A DNA stretch of 64,000 nt from a virus (IMGVR_UViG_3300044811_000031:1-64000); one strand, 5' to 3'; shown: positions 936 through 57,096, counted from the first letter of the stretch. Program-made: numbers and translations. The notes: a model not told the origin generated them from the letters alone.

Positions 936-3900
936 AGATTCCCCGGCCGCCAAGGAGCTGTCGCAGGGCCATGCCGAAGAGCTGGCCCGATCGGTGATCA
1001 ACGCTGAAGCGATTACGGCTCGTGGCTACGAGACCCTGTACGGCTCGGACGAGGACAAGGCGCGGCTCAAGGCCCTGCACATCCCCCGCTGGGCCATCCG
1101 CGAGGACATGGCCTACCCGGGCATCCTCATGCCGATGTACCGCGTCACCGGTGAGGAGATCGGTGCGCAGTGGAAGCCCGCCATCCCCCAGGAGGCCCCC
1201 GGGGGCAAGCTGGAGAAGTACGCCAGCCAGGCCGGGGTGCCCAACCGGCTCGACGTCCCGCCGGGGGTGGCCGACTCCGTCCGCGACCCCAGCGACCCGC
1301 TGTGGATCACCGAAGGGATCAAGAAGGGCGACTGCCTGGCGAGCCTCGGCAAGGCCGTGGTCACGCTCACCGGCGTGTTCAACTGGCGCTCCAAGCACGG
1401 CACCCTGGGCGACTGGGAGGACATCCCGCTCCGGGGCCGGTCCGTGGTGATCTGCTTCGACTCCGATGCGCGGTCCAACCGCAACGTCATGGCGGCGATG
1501 CAGAGGCTCGGCCGGTGGCTGGGGTCCAAGGGTGCTCAGGACGTGCGGTACCTGATCGTCCCGGAGCAGGTCGACCAGACGCCGGTCAAGGGGGTGGACG
1601 ACTTCTTCGCCGCCGGGGGAACGATGGAGATCCTGGCCGGTGTGGCCATGACCGAGATCCCCAACGAGGCGCGGGACGCCACCTTCACCGACCGGGTGCT
1701 GGCCGACACGGTCTGCTCCGAGGAGCTGGACGGCCGCTTCCGCTGGGCCAGTGGGCTCGGCTGGATGCAGTGGACCGGCAAGGTGTGGAGGGAGGCCACT
1801 GAGGTCACCGTCACCGAGACCGTCAGCCGCTGGGCTCTGGAGCAGTTCCACCAGGCGGCGGACAATCACCTGCGGGGCAACGGCCGGGACGCTCAGGCAC
1901 TCATGGACGGCTGGCGCGGGGTGCTCTCGTCCGGCCGGGTGGGGGCGATCCTCAAGTTCGTGAAGGGGACGCTGGAGTGCGACCCGGACGCCTTCGACCG
2001 CGACCCGGATCTGCTCAACTGCCCGAACGGGATCGTGGACCTGCGGACGGGTCAGCTCCAGCCGCCGGACCCCGACATGCTGATGACCAAGATCACCGGT
2101 GCGGACTTCGTCAAGGACGCCGGGCACCCCGACTGGGACAAGGCTCTGGAGGCCCTGCCCGAGGACGTCAGGGACTGGTACCAGCTCCGCGTCGGGCAGG
2201 CTCTCACCGGCCACATGACCCCGGACGATCTGGTGGTCATCTGCCAGGGTGGCGGGAGTAACGGCAAGAGCACCGTGTACGACGGGTCCGCTCTCGCCGC
2301 CGGTAAGTACCACGTCCAGATCAGCGACCGGATGATGCTCGGGGCCGCGAGCGACAACCACCCCACCGAGATCATGGACCTGCTGGGGGCGCGGTACGCC
2401 GTGCTGGAGGAGACGCCGGAGTCAAGGAGGCTCGACACCAACCGGCTGAAGAAGGTCGCCGGTACCCGCGAGGTCACCGGCCGCCGCATCCGTCAGGACC
2501 CGGTGACCTTCAGCGCGACGCACAGCCTCTTCATCAACTCCAACTACAAGCCGGTGGTGGACGAGACCGACCACGGCACCTGGAGGCGCCTGGCGCTGCT
2601 GCGGTGGCCCTTCACCTTCAGGAAGGCCCAGAAGGACTGCCGGGGGCCGGAGGACCGGGTCGGTGACCCCACGCTGAGGGAGCGGATCAAGACCAACCCT
2701 CAGGCTCTGGAGGCCGCGCTCGCGTGGGCTGCGGCCGGGGCGAGGCGCTGGTACGAGCTGGAGAAGATCATGCCGGAGATGCCCGACCGGGTGATCGCCG
2801 ACACCCTCGAATGGCGCAAGGATGCCGACCTGATCCTGTCCTTCGTCGGGGAGGAGATCGAGTTCGATCTCGATGCGTACGTGGCCGGTACGGAGCTGCG
2901 CTCGGTGTTCAACAGGTGGGTCCGGGACAAGGGTCAGAAGGAGTGGGGGGACAAGACTTTCAACGCCCGTTTCGGGGGCCACGACGAGGTCTCCCAGCAC
3001 GGTGTGCAGTACCGCGTCGTGAAGGTTTCCAGCGGGCTGTCGACGCGGAAGCCGGATCCCCCCTCCGCATCGACCGTCAGGGCGTGGGTCGGTCTCAAAT
3101 TCCGAGACGAAAATGGAGGATCGGGCGAAACGGACATTTCGGTAAACGACCCGTTCACAGGCCCGGGAACAAGATCGGTTACGGCAGTTACACTTCCAGA
3201 CATAACCATTCCTGTACACCCCCGCGCGAGCGTTAATGCTGGAAGTGTAACTCCTGTAACCGATCATGAAACCGGAGCCGTAACGATCAAGGAATCTGAA
3301 ATCCAGGAGACCGGGGAAACCATGATCGAAAACCCGTTCGCGGATCTTTCCGTGGACCCCTTCGCGGACCCCGAGGAGGAGCCCCCCGCACCCCCCGTCA
3401 TCGACACCTCCGGACCGCTGGGATTCGACCTGGAGACTGCCGACGCGAAGGCCGCGTTCACGTACGGCCCGGGCTTCGTCCGGCTGCCGGGAGTGATCGA
3501 CCAGCACGGCACGATCCGCACCGGCGTGGACCCCGCCGAACTGGTCGAGATGATCAACGAGGCGCCGGAGGTCTACGGCCACAACATCCTCGGTTTCGAC
3601 GGCCCGGTGCTCGCGCACTGGCATGGGCTCGACTGGGAGGCGTTCACCGCCAAGGCTGTCGACACCGAGCCGCTCAGCCGTCAGGCCCACCCGCCGCACA
3701 GCCGCACCCACGGCTCGACCGACGAGTACGACCTCGATCACGTCGCGCTGCGCTACGGCCTGGTGGGCAAGATCACCGGGGAGGACGGCCTCCCGGCCCT
3801 CAAGCGCAAGTTCGGCGGGTACGACAAGATCCCTCTCGACAACCCGAAGTACAACGCCTACCTCGCGGGCGACCTGCGGGCCACCAAGGCGGTGCGGGAG

Positions 3901-5142
3901 ATCCTCCCCAGCGACGCGTACACCGCCCGGGAGCACGTGGTCCTGAAGCACATGGGACAGATGACCCTGAACGGGTTCAAAGTGGACGTCGCGCTCAACG
4001 AGCAGCGGATCCGGGAGGGGGAGGAGCGCAAGCAAGCCGCCCTCACGGCCCTCAGCGCCACCTACGGGCTCCCGCTGGGCCGCTCGGTACCCAGGGGGCG
4101 CGGGAAGGCGCGAGCGGCCGTCTGGGAGCCGCACAAGAGCCCGCTGGCCACCACGGAGGGCAACGCCTGGCTCCTCGACCTCTGGAAGCAGTTCGGGGTC
4201 CGGTACCCGCCGCGCACCAAGGAGGGCCACCTGAGCATGGCGGCCGACGCCCTGGAGACCGTGGCCCGGCACCCCCGCTGCGCGCCGGAGCTGAAGCAGG
4301 CTCTGGAGCTGATGGCCATCGTCACCAAGACCCGCACCGTCTACCAGACGGCGGCCACGTACCTCACCCCTGAGGGACGCGTCCACCCCAAGGTGAGCAT
4401 GCGCCAGGCATCCGGCCGGGGCTCCGTCACCGAGCCCGGGATGACCGTCTACGGCAAGCGCGACGGCAAGCACATCGAGCGGGACATCTTCATCGCGGAC
4501 GACGGCCACGTGATCATCACCTGCGACCTGAGCCAGGTCGACATGAGGGCGGTCGCGGGCCACTGCCAGGACCCGCTCTACATGGCGATGTTCGAGATCG
4601 GCAAGGACATGCACGCCGAGATCGCCGCGATGATGAACGTCACCCGCGACGGCGTCAAGCCGCTGAACCACGGCTACAACTACGGCATGGGCGCCCGCTC
4701 CATGATCGAGAAGGAGGGCCACGACCCGGGTCTGGTGCACGCCTTCTTCCAGGCGATGAGCCAGTTCACCGTCAAGGACACCTGGACCGGGAAGATCAGG
4801 GAGCAGGCGGAGGACGGCGGCCTGCTGGACAACGGCTTCGGCCGCCTGATGAGGTGCGACCCGAAGGCCGCCTACACCGTGGCGCCCGCGCTCATGGGCC
4901 AGGGCACGGCGCGCGACATCACCTGTCAGGTGCTGCTCCGGCTGCTGGACCGGCACCCCAACTACGCTCAGTATCTTAGGACTTGGGTCCACGACGAGTT
5001 TGTGTTCTCCGTCCCCGAGGACCAGGCCGAGCAGATCGGCAACGACATCAAGGAGGCGTTCACGTGGGAGTGGAAGGGCGTCCCGATCCTGTGCGAGCTG
5101 AGCAAGACGGGCCACAGCTGGGGAGAGTGCAGCGCCAAGTGA
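922..5142 (+). CDS. Fused primase (Toprim/DUF3854-like) - SF3/D5-type helicase - family A DNA polymerase with 3'-5' exonuclease
   Basis: Toprim ITEGIKKG and CFDSD; Walker A GGGSNGKST; Exo I/II/III FDLET, HNILGFD, YLAGD; Pol motifs A DLSQVDMR, B KPLNHGYNYG, C VHDE; one uninterrupted 1406-aa ORF. Confidence 0.9.
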   Translation: MTTTEDSPAAKELSQGHAEELARSVINAEAITARGYETLYGSDEDKARLKALHIPRWAIREDMAYPGILMPMYRVTGEEIGAQWKPAIPQEAPGGKLEKYASQAGVPNRLDVPPGVADSVRDPSDPLWITEGIKKGDCLASLGKAVVTLTGVFNWRSKHGTLGDWEDIPLRGRSVVICFDSDARSNRNVMAAMQRLGRWLGSKGAQDVRYLIVPEQVDQTPVKGVDDFFAAGGTMEILAGVAMTEIPNEARDATFTDRVLADTVCSEELDGRFRWASGLGWMQWTGKVWREATEVTVTETVSRWALEQFHQAADNHLRGNGRDAQALMDGWRGVLSSGRVGAILKFVKGTLECDPDAFDRDPDLLNCPNGIVDLRTGQLQPPDPDMLMTKITGADFVKDAGHPDWDKALEALPEDVRDWYQLRVGQALTGHMTPDDLVVICQGGGSNGKSTVYDGSALAAGKYHVQISDRMMLGAASDNHPTEIMDLLGARYAVLEETPESRRLDTNRLKKVAGTREVTGRRIRQDPVTFSATHSLFINSNYKPVVDETDHGTWRRLALLRWPFTFRKAQKDCRGPEDRVGDPTLRERIKTNPQALEAALAWAAAGARRWYELEKIMPEMPDRVIADTLEWRKDADLILSFVGEEIEFDLDAYVAGTELRSVFNRWVRDKGQKEWGDKTFNARFGGHDEVSQHGVQYRVVKVSSGLSTRKPDPPSASTVRAWVGLKFRDENGGSGETDISVNDPFTGPGTRSVTAVTLPDITIPVHPRASVNAGSVTPVTDHETGAVTIKESEIQETGETMIENPFADLSVDPFADPEEEPPAPPVIDTSGPLGFDLETADAKAAFTYGPGFVRLPGVIDQHGTIRTGVDPAELVEMINEAPEVYGHNILGFDGPVLAHWHGLDWEAFTAKAVDTEPLSRQAHPPHSRTHGSTDEYDLDHVALRYGLVGKITGEDGLPALKRKFGGYDKIPLDNPKYNAYLAGDLRATKAVREILPSDAYTAREHVVLKHMGQMTLNGFKVDVALNEQRIREGEERKQAALTALSATYGLPLGRSVPRGRGKARAAVWEPHKSPLATTEGNAWLLDLWKQFGVRYPPRTKEGHLSMAADALETVARHPRCAPELKQALELMAIVTKTRTVYQTAATYLTPEGRVHPKVSMRQASGRGSVTEPGMTVYGKRDGKHIERDIFIADDGHVIITCDLSQVDMRAVAGHCQDPLYMAMFEIGKDMHAEIAAMMNVTRDGVKPLNHGYNYGMGARSMIEKEGHDPGLVHAFFQAMSQFTVKDTWTGKIREQAEDGGLLDNGFGRLMRCDPKAAYTVAPALMGQGTARDITCQVLLRLLDRHPNYAQYLRTWVHDEFVFSVPEDQAEQIGNDIKEAFTWEWKGVPILCELSKTGHSWGECSAK
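3173..3265. repeat. 27-bp imperfect inverted repeat with GTTAC/GTAAC units inside the helicase-polymerase linker
   Basis: GATCGGTTACGGCAGTTACACTTCCAG (3173-3199) vs CTGGAAGTGTAACTCCTGTAACCGATC (3239-3265), 2 mismatches. Confidence 0.85.
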
Positions 5143-6207: not shown

Positions 6208-6921
6208 ATGACGACAGCCGTGTACGTGACCACCGAGGAGATCGACCTCGACGCCCTCACGCCCTTCCCGGGCAACGCCTGGCAGGGCGACCCGGAGAAG
6301 ATCGCGGAGAGCATCCGGGCCAACGGCCAGTACCGCTCCATGGTCGTCCGGCGCACCGGCGAGGGCGACGTCGTGCTCGCGGGCAACCACACCCGCCTCG
6401 CCCTGAAGCACCTGGGGCGCAGCTCCGGCCGGTGCGAGGTGATCGTGTGCGACGCCGATACCGCCGTACGCATCAACCTCGCGGACAACAAGATCCCCAC
6501 GTACGGCAGCTACGACGACAACGCCCTGCTGGAGCTGCTCAAGGTCGTGGCCGACGATATGACCGGCACCGGCTACGATCCCGACGAGCTGGACGACCTC
6601 CTGGCCGCCCTCACCCCGGACGTCACCGTGCTGCCGGAGGTGGGGCCCACGGACGCCCGCTACGCCGAGAGCGACGAGGAGGAGCAGGCGCGGCGCGACC
6701 GGGTCGAGGCATACGAGCCGCGCCACGGCGGGGGCGACGGGGACGGAGCGATGACCGAGCTGATCCTCGTCATGACCGTGGCCGACCGCACCGAGGCAGC
6801 CGAACTGATCAAGACGGTGCGCGAGCGCGACGGCGACCTGACCGCCGGGCAGATCGTGCTCTACGCCCTGCGGGTGCACGCGGCCGACGACGGGCCGGAA
6901 GAGGGCGACGAGGATGCCTGA
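6208..6921 (+). CDS. ParB-like N-terminal domain protein
   Basis: LTPFPGNA...IAESIRANGQYRSMVV...VLAGNHTRLAL...INLADNK. Confidence 0.85.
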   Translation: MTTAVYVTTEEIDLDALTPFPGNAWQGDPEKIAESIRANGQYRSMVVRRTGEGDVVLAGNHTRLALKHLGRSSGRCEVIVCDADTAVRINLADNKIPTYGSYDDNALLELLKVVADDMTGTGYDPDELDDLLAALTPDVTVLPEVGPTDARYAESDEEEQARRDRVEAYEPRHGGGDGDGAMTELILVMTVADRTEAAELIKTVRERDGDLTAGQIVLYALRVHAADDGPEEGDEDA

Positions 6922-7339
6922 GCACCACGACCTCACCGGCGTACGCCTGACCGTGTGGTCGGGCCCTCAGGACGGCGCTGAGGTCCCCGTAGGGGGCATT
7001 GTGTCCGTCAAGCTGGACCCCCGAGGAGAGGACATGGCCATGCGTGATCCCGAGACCGCGAGACTGCTCCGGGCGGTGAGCGTGGCCGTGGCCGATGCAC
7101 GGGAGGGCGGCTGCGCCGCTCGTGCCTGCATCTGGGACGCGACGGTCGCCGCTGTCGACGGGGAGTACCGCGAGCACGCCTCCCCCGAGGCACGGCGCAC
7201 CGCAGACGGCGCATGCCGCGCCGTGGATCCGCCGACCGTCAAGGCCGGGCCCCGGCCGCCGGACCCTCCCCGCCTCGCCCGCTGGCTGCTGCGCCTGGGC
7301 AACGCGCTCGCGTCCAGGAAGGCCCGGCATGGAGCTTGA
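6914..7339 (+). CDS. Hypothetical protein
   Basis: Fills gap between ParB and transferase, overlapping both. Confidence 0.5.
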   Translation: MPEHHDLTGVRLTVWSGPQDGAEVPVGGIVSVKLDPRGEDMAMRDPETARLLRAVSVAVADAREGGCAARACIWDATVAAVDGEYREHASPEARRTADGACRAVDPPTVKAGPRPPDPPRLARWLLRLGNALASRKARHGA

Positions 7340-8453
7340 GCGGGGCATGGACTTCCGCCTGCCGGAGTACCGGCGCGAGGTGTTCATCAGGTTCTTCCTG
7401 TGGACGTGCAGGCGGCGCAGCCACCCCGGCGCGGTGTACTACCTGATGCCCTGGCTGCGGGAGCACTACGGCTGGACGGCTGAGGAGGCCCTGTGGTTCG
7501 CGTTCCTCAACGGCAACACCCAGCACCCGGTGACCTCCCTCCTGCTGATGGACCGGTGCAATGACCCGAACGACGACGCCACCGTGGAGAGGATGCTGCA
7601 CTTCTACCGGCGGCAGTACCCGTGGCTGGCGTTCGACACCGACCGCCGCCACTGGAAGAAGAGCCTGCCCCAGGCCGTGGACAGCTACCGTGCCGCGCTG
7701 AAGCCCTACGGCGGAAGCCAGGCGGACATGTGGCAGGCTGCCGCCTCCGGAGGGTTCGCCGGAGTGTGGGACCAGGCCACCGCCCTGTACGGCTTCGGCC
7801 GTCTGAGCGCCTTCAGCTACGCCGAGTACCTGTGGCTGGCCGGGGTGCCGTTCACCTGTGACGACCTGATGCTCGGGGACAAGGACGGCTCCCGCTCCCA
7901 CCGCAACGGGCTGTGCATCGCCACCGGACAGGACGGCCTCGTCTGGGACCGGGCCCTCGGGACGTACGACGGCCGCTACCCGCCGAAGACCATCGCCACC
8001 CTGACCCGGGTGGCCGCGAGCATCCTTGAGGAGGCTCAGGACCGCGCCGGGGCGGCCTGGCGGGGGGACGTCAACAACTTCACCCTGGAGTCCGCCCTGT
8101 GCACGTACAAGGGCTGGCACAAGCCCAACCGCCGGTACCCCGGCGTCTACAACGACATGCTCTACACCCGGCTCAAGCGGTACGAGGAGACGTGGCCCGG
8201 CGGGGGGCAGCAGTGGACGGCCCCCTTCTGGCAGGCGCGCCACGACAGCCTCCCCGCGTGGATGCGGCTGGAGGACAGCCCGTACGACCCCGGCTGCGTC
8301 CCGGTGAAGCAGAACTGGTACCGCACCACCGGGGAGATCCCCGTCATGGGCCACGACGATCCGGTCTTCTGGTCGGGCTTCGACTCGGGGGTCGGGCGGG
8401 GCGAGTTCGGCCTGAGGAAAGATCTCCAACGGGACAGGATGGTGCTGCGGTGA
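7329..8453 (+). CDS. Amino acid:DNA transferase (aGPT-Pplase2-like, thymidine hypermodification)
   Basis: WFAFLNGNTQHP, FDTDRRH, FGRLSAFSYAEYL, GSRSHRNGL, FTLESALCTYKGWHKPNRRYP motifs; context with kinase and PLP enzyme. Confidence 0.8.
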   Translation: MELERGMDFRLPEYRREVFIRFFLWTCRRRSHPGAVYYLMPWLREHYGWTAEEALWFAFLNGNTQHPVTSLLLMDRCNDPNDDATVERMLHFYRRQYPWLAFDTDRRHWKKSLPQAVDSYRAALKPYGGSQADMWQAAASGGFAGVWDQATALYGFGRLSAFSYAEYLWLAGVPFTCDDLMLGDKDGSRSHRNGLCIATGQDGLVWDRALGTYDGRYPPKTIATLTRVAASILEEAQDRAGAAWRGDVNNFTLESALCTYKGWHKPNRRYPGVYNDMLYTRLKRYEETWPGGGQQWTAPFWQARHDSLPAWMRLEDSPYDPGCVPVKQNWYRTTGEIPVMGHDDPVFWSGFDSGVGRGEFGLRKDLQRDRMVLR

Positions 8454-9475
8454 CCACCGGCACGATCTTCCCCGACCTCGCCCCGGCCGACGTCCACTGG
8501 GGTGACCAGACCGACAAGCTCACCCCGGTCGACACCGGCGAGAGCGGCCTGATGTACAAGCGTGAAGATTTCTTCGCCCCGCTGGGGTACGGCGGCATCA
8601 ACGGCTCCAAGCTGCGCCAGCTCATCTACCTCATGGAGCCGATGCGTGGCGGCACCGCCGTGACCGCCTGCTCCGTGCTGTCCCCGCAGAGCAGCATGAC
8701 CGCTCTGGTCGGCCGTCACTTCGGGGTCGGGGTCACGGTCATCCTGGGGGCGACGCGGTACGAGAGTGCCGTCAAGCACGAGAACGTGAAGATCGCCGTG
8801 GCTGCCGGAGCCGAGCTGAAGTTCGTCAAGGTGGCCTACAACCCGGCGCTCCAGAGGGCTGTGAAGCTCCACCAGGCGGAGCACGGGAGCTACGTGGTGC
8901 CCTACGGCATCACCACCCCGCCCGAGGCCGGACCGCGCCAGGTCGCGAGCTTCCACCTGCTCGCGTCGCGTCAGGTCGTCAACATCCCCGCCCAGACCCG
9001 CACTCTGGTGATCCCCTTCGGCTCTGCCAACTCGGCCACCGGTGTGCTCACCGGGCTGGCCCGCTACGGCCCCGGAGCCATCAGCCGGGTGGTGCTCATC
9101 GGCATCGGGCCCAACCGGCTGCCCTGGCTGTGGAAGCGGCTGGAGGTGATCGAGCGGGGACTCGGGCTCGACATCCGCAGCCTGTTCACGGTGCGCAGCC
9201 ACTTCCAGGGGGCGCAGTCCTCCGCCGACGTACAGGACACCGCCGGGCCCGTGCTGCTGGAGCACTACGACCTGCACGGCACGGGGTACGTCAGATACGC
9301 CGACCGGCGCCTCTGGAGGCAGGACGGCATCGACTTCCACCCCACGTACGAGGGCAAGGTCATGCACTGGCTCGCCGACGTCCGCCCCCACTGGCACAAG
9401 CCCGCCGACGGTACCGAACTGTTCTGGATCGTCGGTTCCGAGCCCCACCTGTCCGCGATGAAGGAGCTGCTGTGA
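8450..9475 (+). CDS. PLP-dependent enzyme (fold-type II; DNA-modification decarboxylase-like)
   Basis: TPV...YKREDFFAPLGYGGINGSKLRQ (Schiff-base Lys region), PFGSANS, FHPTYEGK, LFWIVG. Confidence 0.8.
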   Translation: MTTGTIFPDLAPADVHWGDQTDKLTPVDTGESGLMYKREDFFAPLGYGGINGSKLRQLIYLMEPMRGGTAVTACSVLSPQSSMTALVGRHFGVGVTVILGATRYESAVKHENVKIAVAAGAELKFVKVAYNPALQRAVKLHQAEHGSYVVPYGITTPPEAGPRQVASFHLLASRQVVNIPAQTRTLVIPFGSANSATGVLTGLARYGPGAISRVVLIGIGPNRLPWLWKRLEVIERGLGLDIRSLFTVRSHFQGAQSSADVQDTAGPVLLEHYDLHGTGYVRYADRRLWRQDGIDFHPTYEGKVMHWLADVRPHWHKPADGTELFWIVGSEPHLSAMKELL

Positions 9476-10038
9476 ACCTGCTGTACATCGTCGGACCTCC
9501 CGGCGTCGGGAAGAGCACCCTGATGACCGCGCTCACCGCACGCTGCGAACGCCGGGCACGGGTGAGCCCCTTCGCCCATTGCCACCTGCTGCGTCGCGAC
9601 CCGACCGGCCTGCTCTCCTCCGACCCGGTGGCGGTCGAGCTGGGCAAGCACCGCGACTCCTTCAGCGGCACGGACGCCCTGAGCATGAGCGTCCAGCCGA
9701 AGGCCATGGAGTGGATCTGCTCCAAGCCCTCGCCTCTCGTGCTCGGTGAGGGGGCCCGGCTCGGCACGGTCGGCTTCCTCATGGCCGCACGCAGCGCCGG
9801 GTACCGGGTGACGCTCGTGCACCTGGAGGCCGACCAGCGCACCCTCGCTGAGCGACGGAGGGCCCGGGGCAGCCTCCAGAACGAGCAGTGGATGCGGGGT
9901 GCGGAGACCCGGGCGGCCCGGCTGGCTGAGAGGATGAGCATGGATGCCGACGTTCACGTCATCCGTGCCGACCGGCCGCCCAACCGGATGGCCGACTTCA
10001 TCATCGGCCTGGACCCTGAGCTGGAGGTGCTGCGGTGA
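9472..10038 (+). CDS. P-loop kinase, 5-hydroxymethyluracil DNA kinase-like
   Basis: GPPGVGKST Walker A; FSGTDALSMSVQP and GEGARL motifs. Confidence 0.8.
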   Translation: MNLLYIVGPPGVGKSTLMTALTARCERRARVSPFAHCHLLRRDPTGLLSSDPVAVELGKHRDSFSGTDALSMSVQPKAMEWICSKPSPLVLGEGARLGTVGFLMAARSAGYRVTLVHLEADQRTLAERRRARGSLQNEQWMRGAETRAARLAERMSMDADVHVIRADRPPNRMADFIIGLDPELEVLR

Positions 10039-10943
10039 TCGATCTGCGTCTGCGCTCGCGGGTGTCCGCCGACGAGCTGGCCACCAAGGCCGGGAAGATC
10101 CTCGGGCCCCAGGACTACAACCTGCTGCTGACTGGCCCGGCTCGTATCCGCATGCCCGACAACCGGCCGCTGGCGGTGTACCTGCCGGGTGTGCTCACCG
10201 GCTACCTGGACGAGCCCGGTGTCTACGACATCCTCCATTCGCTGCGCAGCAGCCGGACCAACAACCGTGGCCTGGCCAGTGGCAGTAAGAGGTTCCAGAC
10301 CCGCCATGGCGCAGCACAGGGCAGTGAGGACGGGCGCCGGGGCACCGGCCGCACCTACAGCCGTCAGGTGCCGTCGATGATCGCGGGTGCCGTGGACCCC
10401 CAGGGACAGAAGCAGCACTGCCGTCTGACCGCCTGGACCGGCACCCACATGCCGCAGTGGCAGGCTCTCCAGCCTCTGTTCCGGGCCGTGGCCGTGAACC
10501 AGAAGCTCTACGTGCCGGAGCGCGCCGCCGCGCAGCAGGAGCAGGCCGACAAGACCGACCCGGCGTGGGTGGTGCCCGGCACTCCGTTCAGCACGATCAC
10601 GGTCAACAACACCTACCCCACCGGCGTCCACACCGACAAGGGTGATCTCGACGCGGGCTTCAGCACCATCGCGGTGCTGCGCCGGGGGCCGTACGTAGGC
10701 GGTCACCTCGTCTTCCCGGAGTACCGGGTGGCCGTCGACCTGCACCATGGCGACCTGATCCTCATGGATGCGCACCAGTGGCACGGCAACACGGCCCTGG
10801 TCTGTGCGTGCGGCCGGGAGCCCAACGGGAGCTGCGAGGAGTGCGGTGCTGAGAGGATCAGCATCGTGTCGTACTTCCGCACAAAGATCACCGAGTGCGG
10901 CACTCCCGATCAGGAGCTGCGTAAGGCCACCGGCGTTCGCTGA
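10035..10943 (+). CDS. TET/JBP-family 2OG-Fe(II) dioxygenase
   Basis: PFSTITVN, HxD (VHTDKGD), distal His (WHGNT), ERISIVSYFR. Confidence 0.85.
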   Translation: MIDLRLRSRVSADELATKAGKILGPQDYNLLLTGPARIRMPDNRPLAVYLPGVLTGYLDEPGVYDILHSLRSSRTNNRGLASGSKRFQTRHGAAQGSEDGRRGTGRTYSRQVPSMIAGAVDPQGQKQHCRLTAWTGTHMPQWQALQPLFRAVAVNQKLYVPERAAAQQEQADKTDPAWVVPGTPFSTITVNNTYPTGVHTDKGDLDAGFSTIAVLRRGPYVGGHLVFPEYRVAVDLHHGDLILMDAHQWHGNTALVCACGREPNGSCEECGAERISIVSYFRTKITECGTPDQELRKATGVR

Positions 10944-14081: not shown

Positions 14082-14248
14082 GCAAGATAGTGATCACCAT
14101 TGAGGGCGACGAGCTGGAGATCGGCGAGGCCACCGATCTCCTGGTCCGCCTCGCCGAGGATCTGGCAAGCCAGGGATTCGCGTCCTCCGGGTACGAGGTC
14201 GGCCCCGAGCAGGACACCCTCGCCCTCGTCGGTCGGAGCATGCAGTGA
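14078..14248 (+). CDS. Hypothetical protein
   Basis: GTGA-coupled at both ends; 56 aa. Confidence 0.55.
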   Translation: MSKIVITIEGDELEIGEATDLLVRLAEDLASQGFASSGYEVGPEQDTLALVGRSMQ

Positions 14249-15291
14249 TCAACAGAGTCCTGCTCACGGGAGCATCCGGCTTCGTCGGGGCGCACGTGCT
14301 GCGCCACCTGCTTACCCACACCGACTGGCATATCGTCTGCCCGGTAACCTTCACCCACCACGGCCTGCCCGGCCGTATCGCGTCGTCCATCTGCGACGAC
14401 GCGGAGTGGATCAATCGGGTGGACGTCGTCCACTGGGACCTGCGCTCCCCGGCGGACTCCGTCACCGTCGGCCGCATCGGCGCCATCGACTACGTGCTCA
14501 ACGTGGCGAGCGAGAGCCACGTGGACCGGTCCATCGAGCACCCGGCCGACTTCATCTCCAACAACGTCTCCCTCATGCTCAACGTGCTGGAGATGGCCGT
14601 ACAGCTCCAGCCCAAGGTCTTCCTCCAGATGAGCACGGACGAGGTCTACGGCCCGGCTCCCGAGGGCTACGACTCCCGCGAGTGGGACGTCATCGCCCCG
14701 TCCAATCCGTACAGCGCGAGCAAGGCGGCGCAAGAAGCCATCGCCTTCAGCTACTGGCGGACGTACGGCGTGCCGGTCGTCATCACCAACACGATGAACA
14801 TCGTCGGGGAGATGCAGGACCGCGAGAAGTTCATCCCGATGATCATCGGCAAGGTGCTGTCCGGCAACCCCATCACCGTGCACACCGACTCCACCGGCAA
14901 GCCGGGCAGCCGCTTCTACCTGCACGCCCGCAACCTCGCCGACGCGTGGCTCTGGCTGCTGCACGAGCGTGGCCACAGCTGGGACCTCCAGGAGTATGCC
15001 GACGGGTCCGCCCGGCCGAGCCGCTACAACATCGTCGGGGAGCGGGAGGTCGACAACATCGAGATGGTGCGGCTGGTGGCCAATGCCGTCTGGGACGCGA
15101 AGGGCATGCCCCGCACCGACCCAATGATCAACCGGGTGGACTTCCACAGCTCGCGCCCCGGGCACGACCTGCGCTACGCCCTCGACGGCAGCAAGCTCCA
15201 CGCCATCGGCTGGCAGCCGCCGGTGCCCCTGGAGTCCGCCCTCAAGAAGACCGTGGCCTGGACGCTCGACCACCCGGAGTGGCTGCGGTGA
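14245..15291 (+). CDS. NDP-sugar 4,6-dehydratase (dTDP-glucose 4,6-dehydratase/RmlB-like)
   Basis: TGASGFVG, ASESHVDRSI, STDEVYG, YSASK, RPGHDLRYALD. Confidence 0.9.
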   Translation: MINRVLLTGASGFVGAHVLRHLLTHTDWHIVCPVTFTHHGLPGRIASSICDDAEWINRVDVVHWDLRSPADSVTVGRIGAIDYVLNVASESHVDRSIEHPADFISNNVSLMLNVLEMAVQLQPKVFLQMSTDEVYGPAPEGYDSREWDVIAPSNPYSASKAAQEAIAFSYWRTYGVPVVITNTMNIVGEMQDREKFIPMIIGKVLSGNPITVHTDSTGKPGSRFYLHARNLADAWLWLLHERGHSWDLQEYADGSARPSRYNIVGEREVDNIEMVRLVANAVWDAKGMPRTDPMINRVDFHSSRPGHDLRYALDGSKLHAIGWQPPVPLESALKKTVAWTLDHPEWLR

Positions 15292-51719: not shown

Positions 51720-51746
51720 GATCTCTCCTGTCTCGTTGGTCTTACG

Positions 51747-57005: not shown

Positions 57006-57026
57006 CGTGCTCTCCTCTCGTTTGAG

Positions 57027-57096
57027 TGTCCTCAACAGGATTCGAACCTGTGGACTCCGGCACTAGCAACCGGCGCGCAACCGATGCGCTGAGGAC
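57027..57096 (-). tRNA. Atypical tRNA-like RNA, CUA centred in anticodon loop
   Basis: Acceptor GTCCTCA/TGAGGAC, canonical T-arm, stem CCGGT/GCCGG with loop TGCTAGT; no U8, short D-arm. Confidence 0.6.

Follow-up and report, generated by a model that had tools for sequence, protein, structure and literature searches.

The stretch of viral DNA considered here, IMGVR_UViG_3300044811_000031:1-64000 (64,000 nucleotides, referred to in its entirety as the window), carries between positions 6208 and 10943 of its + strand a cluster of genes that quite probably directs the hypermodification of selected thymines fully after replication. On the basis of the encoded proteins, the route would run from thymine (T) to 5-hydroxymethyluracil (5hmU), 5-phosphomethyl-2'-deoxyuridine (5-PmdU), O-serinyl-thymidine (O-SerT), and finally 5-(2-aminoethoxy)methyl-2'-deoxyuridine (5-NeOmdU). 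Hypermodifications of phage DNA defeat restriction enzymes and some CRISPR systems, and they are a source of enzymes for labelling and sequencing. Because a fully post-replicative route leaves the nucleotide pool as it is, a small operon could carry it into other hosts, and the modification would be sequence-selective instead of global.

Organization of the operon

The six open reading frames (ORFs) of the cluster are listed below, with the family matches and their expectation values.

6208-6921, + strand: ParB-like protein, 237 aa; phrog_723 (6.6e-40); ParB CTPase fold (AlphaFold2, Foldseek)
6914-7339, + strand: small ORF, 141 aa, without a Pfam or PHROG match
7329-8453, + strand: amino acid:DNA transferase (AADT, formerly aGPT-Pplase clade 2), 374 aa; PF18724 (3.1e-15), phrog_3271 (6.6e-68)
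8450-9475, + strand: fold-type II pyridoxal 5'-phosphate (PLP) enzyme, 341 aa; PF00291 (3.9e-8), phrog_3650 (4.5e-84)
9472-10038, + strand: P-loop kinase, 188 aa; PF18751 (1e-33)
10035-10943, + strand: TET/JBP Fe(II)/2-oxoglutarate dioxygenase, 302 aa; PF12851 (4.2e-16)

A preliminary description of this DNA had assigned the five activities to these + strand positions, and the domain and profile matches, together with the conserved catalytic residues described below, bear this out. It had also pictured the genes as overlapping and translationally coupled. That holds for the AADT/PLP, PLP/kinase, and kinase/TET junctions, each of which is a four-nucleotide GTGA stop/start overlap, but the ParB-like and AADT genes are bridged only if the small ORF, which overlaps the stop of the former by 8 nt and the start of the latter by 11 nt, is real. 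No promoter-like sites were found on either strand between positions 5000 and 12500, and no terminator-like sites on the + strand of that interval. A frame plot of third-position GC content (GC3) backs the five enzyme frames, and each of the five cassette genes is present in a single copy in the genome. The six ORFs probably constitute one co-translated operon. Lying directly 5' to the ParB-like gene, on the + strand, is a gene for a 1406-aa primase-helicase-PolA fusion, and directly downstream of the cassette are the terminase and head genes.

The small ORF does not appear to be a conserved part of the cassette. Its frame is ambiguous with respect to a neighboring one (GC3 0.78-0.88), and a shorter start is possible at M41, position 7034. 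The ESM Atlas contains the sequence from residue 41 onward, with a fold of low confidence. A homologue with 58% identity occurs in locus L005 (4005-4442), where it lies upstream of the ParB-like gene, and in L002, the closest relative, the corresponding position is taken by a 96-aa ORF that is unrelated.

Absence of a nucleotide-pool route

The virus record, IMGVR_UViG_3300044811_000031, is 87,791 bp in length with a CheckV completeness of 100%, and the window represents its first 64 kb. A hidden Markov model (HMM) search of the whole genome, in which the controls were positive, revealed no member of PF00303 (Thymidylat_synt, the family of the dUMP/dCMP hydroxymethylases), no ThyX (PF02511), no C5 DNA methyltransferase (PF00145), and no radical S-adenosylmethionine (SAM) gene. 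PF00303 is also absent from four complete relatives (79-96 kb, three of them with terminal repeats). Given that the complete genome contains no hydroxymethylase, ThyX, or C5 methyltransferase, 5hmU cannot come from the nucleotide pool, and 5-methylcytosine (5mC) is not made by the phage. The preliminary description had reported the lack of a dUMP hydroxymethylase, a thymidylate synthase, and a cytosine methyltransferase for the window; the HMM search extends that statement to the whole genome.

The phage has a GC content of ~69%, and its genes include those for a terminase, a portal, a major head protein, a tape measure, and an Rpf/NlpC-P60/LysM lysin. The record originates from soil metagenomes, and a search of sequencing runs placed the stretch in several soil runs, with no RNA run listed. 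The TET protein matches contigs in assemblies of Streptomyces, Actinomadura, and Haloechinothrix, which points to an actinomycete host for this uncultured soil actinophage. A megablast search with the cassette against 50,697 phage records returned zero matches, and the T-context statistics of the genome gave no interpretable signal.

The TET/JBP dioxygenase

The last protein of the operon is proposed to function as a thymine-to-5hmU dioxygenase acting on DNA. Its match to PF12851 scores 59 bits against a cut-off of 34.9. Across 27 homologues, residues H199-x-D201, H247/H250, and R274-x-S276 do not vary; they provide the Fe(II) ligands (HxD...H) and the 2-oxoglutarate-binding arginine. The AlphaFold2 model (pLDDT 87.5, pTM 0.85) has a double-stranded beta-helix fold and is most similar in Foldseek to CcTet, human TET2, NgTET1, and CMD1, with E values of 1e-12 to 1e-9. 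The ParB-dependent subclass of these enzymes is described as having a C-terminal extension past its last conserved Cys and a variable insert of its own (PMC13229309). The window protein displays an invariant C288 followed by 14 residues that include a predicted helix at 291-301, and a segment at ~75-140 that is poorly conserved and of low pLDDT.

Located between the distal histidine and the 2-oxoglutarate-binding arginine is a CxC...CxxC cluster formed by C257, C259, C267, and C270 (positions 10803-10844), which may be a zinc-binding insert. It is found in most homologues from loci with the order ParB-module-kinase-TET and is missing where the ParB-like gene abuts that for TET (L051, L054, L056, L069, and L070). 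A tblastn search with the window TET retrieved only distant marine and Caulobacter phages and zero actinophages, and the TET proteins of actinophages such as Wooper gp2 show only 23% identity to it.

The ParB-like protein

The ParB-like protein has no Pfam match at a threshold of 0.01. Its AlphaFold2 model (pLDDT 87.6) consists of an N-terminal ParB/Srx nucleotide-binding domain (NBD, residues 1-135), a linker with a helix at 156-168, and a small C-terminal domain (CTD, ~186-227); the helix-turn-helix (HTH) DNA-binding domain is absent. The best Foldseek matches are Bacillus subtilis ParB-CDP (6sdk), Myxococcus xanthus ParB (7bnr/7bnk), and Caulobacter crescentus ParB (7bm8).

Many phage 5-methylpyrimidine dioxygenases (5mYOXs) are post-replicative T-dioxygenases, and one subclass needs a cognate ParB that consists of an NBD and a CTD with no DNA-binding domain (O'Toole et al., PNAS 2026, PMC13229309). 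When the cognate ParB is present, and not otherwise, members of this subclass turn as much as 25-35% of T into 5hmU, with a preference for NTR, and P-loop kinases and AADTs are "consistently linked" to them; the T-dioxygenase/ParB step was reconstituted in vivo as well as in vitro in 2025-26 (PMC13229309). Since both the architecture of the window protein (NBD and CTD, no HTH) and its gene context match those of the ParB-dependent activators, it is probably a dioxygenase activator. The preliminary description had simply counted a ParB among the members of the cassette; the protein is present, but is probably more than a neighbor.

The distribution of the gene is in keeping with such a role. 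A profile built from an alignment of TET-linked ParBs (A2) was run on 88 loci and detected a ParB-like ORF in 71 of them. All but two of the 17 misses have 4 kb or less of sequence upstream of TET; the two exceptions are a contig of an Aliarcobacter metagenome-assembled genome and Glutamicibacter phage Montesquieu, which has no TET. Because Montesquieu carries the AADT-PLP-kinase module and a hydroxymethylase, but neither TET nor ParB in its 13-kb locus, the ParB-like protein goes with the dioxygenase rather than with the tailoring genes. Among the listed ORFs, none next to the ParB-like gene was noticed as a ParA.

A second ORF, outside the window at genome positions 78212-79120 (- strand), gives a weak ParB_N match (E 0.013, below the cut-off). 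It was considered as a ParB paralogue and rejected, as the profile from the TET-linked ParBs fails to detect it.

The amino acid:DNA transferase and the PLP enzyme

The AADT scores 57 bits against PF18724 (cut-off 26.2). It is of the long, ViI-like form, with 26% identity to the serine:DNA transferase gp247 of Salmonella phage ViI (E 9e-17) and no BLAST match to gp51 of phage M6. An alignment of 20 AADTs, gp247 and gp51 among them, shows no variation at E254 and C258. A conserved cysteine and a nearby glutamate are essential in M6 gp51 and ViI gp247 (Lee et al. 2021, PMC8989533), and E254 and C258 are inferred to be the residues that were mutated in that study. In a tree of the AADTs, the window protein and gp247 fall on one side of a 100/100 split, with M6 gp51 and the short AADTs that have a flavin adenine dinucleotide (FAD) oxidoreductase as partner on the other. 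Across the loci examined, the long AADTs co-vary with a gp226-like PLP enzyme. An alternative start for the AADT gene at the ATG at position 7095 was ruled out, given that the homologues and the PHROG profile begin at ~7329.

The PLP enzyme, judged from its alignment, is a homologue of the O-serinyl-thymidine decarboxylase gp226 of ViI. The two proteins are 37% identical (E 1e-69) over residues 15-338 of the 341 in the window enzyme, as compared with 26% identity to M6 gp52. The GINGSKLRQ motif is kept, and K54 aligns with K92 of gp226, the proposed Schiff-base lysine (PMC8989533). Note that the match to PF00291, at 33.4 bits, lies just under the cut-off of 35, and that gp226 itself scores 30.7.

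The P-loop kinase

The kinase contains a Walker A motif, GPPGVGKST (G8-K14), and conserved GTD and EGxR motifs; G8, P10, G13, K14, T67, D68, E93, G94, R96, and R132 are invariant in 24 homologues. According to a Pfam scan, the proven 5-hydroxymethyl-2'-deoxyuridine (5-hmdU) DNA kinases belong to PF18748 (HMUDK_HMUD1, M6 gp54) and PF18747 (HMUD2, ViI gp243). PF18751 differs from both families, and the role of the window kinase is therefore assigned from its context. In most loci that have both genes, the kinase gene lies directly upstream of TET, usually with an overlapping stop and start, whichever tailoring module is present. In light of this tight coupling across the relatives, and of the need of an AADT for a phosphorylated substrate, the protein is probably a DNA 5hmU kinase yielding 5-PmdU. 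Thus, of the 5hmU kinase named in the preliminary description, the P-loop kinase motifs are in place, but the family is not one of those proven.

The homologues of PF18751 in cultured phages are almost all from actinophages, including 376 mycobacteriophage records. Coopervirus phages have ParB, AADT, and PF18751 kinase genes at the left end, and no TET was detected in them by tblastn with the window protein. One example of such a kinase is found in Mycobacterium phage Fortunato (L078) at 2863-3462. The AADT of that phage, gp02 (L078:1258-2826), is annotated with 522 aa, of which the Arg-rich N-terminal ~165 aa align with nothing; its annotated start is probably too far upstream.

Relatives of the cassette and exchange of the tailoring module

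A search with the TET protein identified at least 76 IMG/VR loci with 44-85% identity. The gene order ParB-AADT-PLP-kinase-TET is found in ~27 of the 76, often behind the same replicase; this recurrence shows that the genes are not together by chance. The closest relative, L002, is 74-85% identical protein by protein.

In a group of close relatives (L003, L004, L005, L009, L017, L021, L031, L036, L038, L041, and L042), the ParB-like gene and the kinase-TET pair are kept, and the genes in the middle are exchanged. Three such replacement modules were observed: a short AADT with an FAD oxidoreductase (PaMx11-like); an AADT with an unknown gene, a low-molecular-weight (LMW) phosphatase-like gene, and an FAD oxidoreductase; and an unknown gene with a radical SAM/SPASM gene. 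From these comparisons the locus would serve as a scaffold on which modules for different thymine derivatives are exchanged, and the swaps of tailoring modules among close relatives imply chemical diversification within the lineage.

A more far-reaching proposal, put forward here only tentatively, is that PF18751 represents a third family of DNA 5hmU kinases, specialized for TET-initiated pathways of actinophages. The fixed ParB...kinase-TET scaffold would then accept different modules, and the resulting base might be an undescribed thymine derivative placed in contexts selected by ParB and TET, that is to say a packaging-linked mark at specific sites and not bulk armor against restriction.

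The proposed pathway

The proven chain of reactions comprises a kinase that yields 5-PmdU, a monophosphate; an AADT that adds Ser (ViI) or Gly (M6); and a PLP-dependent decarboxylation (Lee et al. 2021, PMC8989533). When Gly is N-linked, a radical SAM isomerase has to act beforehand to expose the amine (PMC8989533). The preliminary description had given the kinase product as a pyrophosphate, which is incorrect in view of the monophosphate established in that work.

By analogy, four steps can be envisioned for the window operon. In the first, for which homology and context speak, the TET/JBP enzyme together with the ParB-like protein would form 5hmU by hydroxylating thymine methyl groups in double-stranded phage DNA, at a subset of positions chosen by sequence. 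In the second, suggested by context only, the PF18751 kinase would phosphorylate the new hydroxyl to form 5-PmdU. The third step follows from homology and from the presence of the catalytic cysteine and glutamate: the AADT would attack C6, displace the phosphate, and attach a free amino acid, for which L-serine, linked by its hydroxyl, is the most likely candidate. The fourth, indicated by the conserved lysine and the 37% full-length identity to gp226, would be a decarboxylation of the appended amino acid by the PLP enzyme, leaving 5-NeOmdU or a close analogue. The modified DNA would then be packaged, with protection against restriction as the presumed benefit.

Our best guess for the product is 5-NeOmdU. 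The ViI route is favored because the PLP enzyme is gp226-like, the AADT groups on the gp247 side, and the genome has no radical SAM gene; without the latter, an N-linked amino acid would not present a free amine for the PLP chemistry. An aminoethoxymethyl-U base had been offered as one example in the preliminary description, and it is the best supported candidate on these same grounds. The core of that description, namely that T is oxidized on the DNA and then processed by a kinase, an amino acid transferase, and a PLP decarboxylase, with only a subset of T affected, is backed by homology and by all of the computational tests that were run.

Several observations weigh against this pathway. The Pfam scan of the kinase returned only PF18751 and generic AAA families, outside the proven 5hmU DNA kinase families, and an hhalign comparison with M6 gp54 aligned only 25 columns around the P-loop, with a probability of 69%. 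In hundreds of cluster B mycobacteriophages, the PF18751 gene, often gene 1, is labelled adenylate kinase or small terminase. The amino acid used by the AADT is the weakest link: serine is a guess, in that the AADT shares just 26% identity with the serine transferase and the tree has very long branches for the two references. The window TET is likened to Clade C1 of the 5mYOXs only by the architecture of its ParB and by gene context, as set out in the published description. In Escherichia coli, many of the ParB-dependent homologues yield <5% 5hmU (PMC13229309). Two complete relatives do carry a C5 methyltransferase gene, far from the TET cassette by tens of kb (G002, 65.7-67.3 kb; G003, 75.0-75.9 kb). 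Finally, the literature consulted contains no virion nucleoside analysis or reported end product for any TET-initiated thymine pathway, and no experiment on this phage or on any phage with the exact gene set.

Alternative explanations

The alternative that fares best retains the logic of the pathway and changes the final base. The AADT might transfer an amino acid different from Ser, such as Thr, homoserine, Cys, or Gly; alternatively, the PLP enzyme might carry out chemistry other than decarboxylation, with maybe an undescribed base as the result. The low identity of the AADT to gp247 would allow for this, as would the free exchange of modules among the relatives (short AADT and FAD oxidoreductase, radical SAM/SPASM, LMW phosphatase-like) and the conservation of a sugar-nucleotide epimerase/dehydratase gene downstream of TET in ~17 of them. 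Set against these points are the full-length homology of the PLP enzyme to the proven O-SerT decarboxylase, the co-variation of long AADTs with gp226-like PLP enzymes, and the lack of the radical SAM enzyme without which an N-linked amino acid would have no free amine for the PLP step (PMC8989533). A base other than 5-NeOmdU is, on balance, unlikely, albeit credible.

It can also be argued that the ParB-like and P-loop proteins serve in partition or packaging and are mere neighbors of an incomplete or inactive modification set. The corresponding PHROG labels are "partition protein" and "terminase small subunit", PF18751 genes are positioned at the extreme left end beside the terminase in many actinophages, and the cassette here lies upstream of the packaging genes. 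In addition, some relatives are whole contigs in Streptomyces assemblies, such that a plasmid-like prophage state is conceivable. A ParB with no DNA-binding domain, and with no ParA noticed beside it among the listed ORFs, fits poorly with partition, however. The ParB-like gene tracks TET, in most relatives translation of the kinase is coupled to that of TET, and the kinase has motifs of the nucleotide-kinase type and would supply the phosphorylated substrate that an AADT needs (PMC8989533). We consider this explanation very improbable.

That the dioxygenase acts on 5mC made by the host, with the cassette hypermodifying cytosine, can hardly be entertained: TET/JBP enzymes of phage clades A and B do oxidize 5mC and P-loop kinases occur in some contigs with a C5 methyltransferase and TET (PMC8256090), the characterized phage T-dioxygenases also oxidize 5mC in vitro (PMC13229309), and a C5 methyltransferase is encoded elsewhere in two complete relatives, but no such gene exists in the complete genome under study, those of the relatives are tens of kb from the cassette, thymidine pathways are the only known setting for AADTs and gp226-like PLP enzymes (PMC8989533), and the ParB-associated 5mYOXs are T-dioxygenases in vivo (PMC13229309).

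Comparison with known systems

The first two components of the proposed thymine pathway most closely resemble Clade C1 of the 5mYOXs (for example, 5mYOX176/ParB176). In both cases a TET/JBP enzyme is accompanied by a ParB that lacks a DNA-binding domain and is made up of an NBD and a CTD, a C5 methyltransferase is missing from the adjacent genes, and a P-loop kinase and an AADT are encoded nearby; the best structural matches of the window ParB, as for those of Clade C1, are BsParB, MxParB, and CcParB. The systems differ in that the ParB-like and TET genes of the window are parted by the whole tailoring module (ParB-x-AADT-PLP-kinase-TET), and in that the arginine of the GNARRGD motif is W25 in the window ParB. 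The published work, moreover, ends at 5hmU and covers no downstream steps.

For the later steps the closest counterpart is Salmonella phage ViI (Lee et al. 2018; 2021, PMC8989533), which likewise has a clade 2 AADT with the Glu and Cys residues, the gp226 PLP decarboxylase, and no radical SAM enzyme, and for which the chemistry from 5hmU through 5-PmdU and O-SerT to 5-NeOmdU is the one predicted here. In ViI, 5hmU is made before replication by a dUMP hydroxymethylase, whereas the window phage has none and is predicted to employ TET and ParB. Of the two kinases of ViI, gp67 and gp243, the latter belongs to PF18747, as opposed to PF18751 for the window enzyme. ViI also has two AADT paralogues, two kinases, and scattered genes, in contrast to the single-copy genes and single operon of the window.

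A combination of the two halves has been noted before. Sequences 22-25 in Figure 2 of Lee et al. 2021 are metavirome contigs with no hydroxymethylase and with TET_JBP beside a kinase and an AADT, and they were read as producing 5hmU in situ for later hypermodification (PMC8989533); the idea is the same as that advanced for the window, although there it was drawn only and not reconstituted. Gordonia phage Wooper and Rhodococcus phage Tonitrus (PMC11955845) have annotated ParB/Tet-like/aGPT-Pplase2/5-hmU DNA kinase cassettes and share with the window phage an actinobacterial host and ParB, TET, AADT, and PF18751 kinase genes beside the terminase. The kinase of Wooper is 41% and its ParB 32% identical to those of the window, as compared with the 23% for TET. 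Wooper differs, in addition, by its short M6-like AADT, its lack of a gp226-like PLP enzyme, and its gene order, ParB-TET-AADT-kinase.

Montesquieu has a collinear arrangement of AADT2, PLP enzyme (ACC-deaminase-like), and PF18751 kinase, with identities of 39%, 32%, and 28-33%, respectively. Its 13-kb locus shows neither TET nor ParB; Montesquieu has genes for an aGPT-Pplase of clade 1 and for a thymidylate synthase/hydroxymethylase, and it represents a pre-replicative version of the same tailoring module.

In view of these precedents, the claim in the preliminary description that no biochemical characterization of this combination was known is outdated: the neighborhood was shown in 2021 (PMC8989533), the TET/ParB step has been reconstituted, and cassettes are annotated in cultured actinophages (PMC11955845). 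Iyer et al. 2013 is cited by both PMC13229309 and PMC8989533. The gene set is real, and its type is already published. With the concept in print since 2013-2021 and the first step reconstituted, the find is useful but would not surprise a specialist; what the genome adds is a clean and complete example, contained in one operon, whose tailoring pair is of the ViI-like kind.

Additional features of the genome

Positioned between the lysin and the large terminase genes, at 14245-15291 (+ strand) of the window, is a gene for an NAD-dependent sugar-nucleotide epimerase/dehydratase (PF01370, 1.7e-43; PF16363, GDP-mannose 4,6-dehydratase-like, 1.2e-40). It is kept 1-3 kb downstream of TET in the ~17 relatives mentioned above, with 58-66% identity and with either tailoring module, and it is absent in L002. 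The enzyme might feed a sugar decoration of the DNA or of the virion; no glycosyltransferase was seen near it among the few neighboring ORFs scanned in two relatives.

Outside the window, at genome positions 70808-72015 (- strand; L083:6808-8012), is a TOD1/MUCI70 glycosyltransferase-like gene (PF04765, 4.5e-8), after which comes a small gene resembling those for class I SAM methyltransferases. Their products could act on 5hmU, in a manner similar to that for base J, or on virion proteins as in some mycobacteriophages.

The leftward early region contains seven tRNA genes, identified with ARAGORN between positions 51746 and 63255 of the window. One of these, at 57026-57096, has a CTA anticodon and was called as tRNA-Pyl; it is possibly an amber suppressor-like tRNA.

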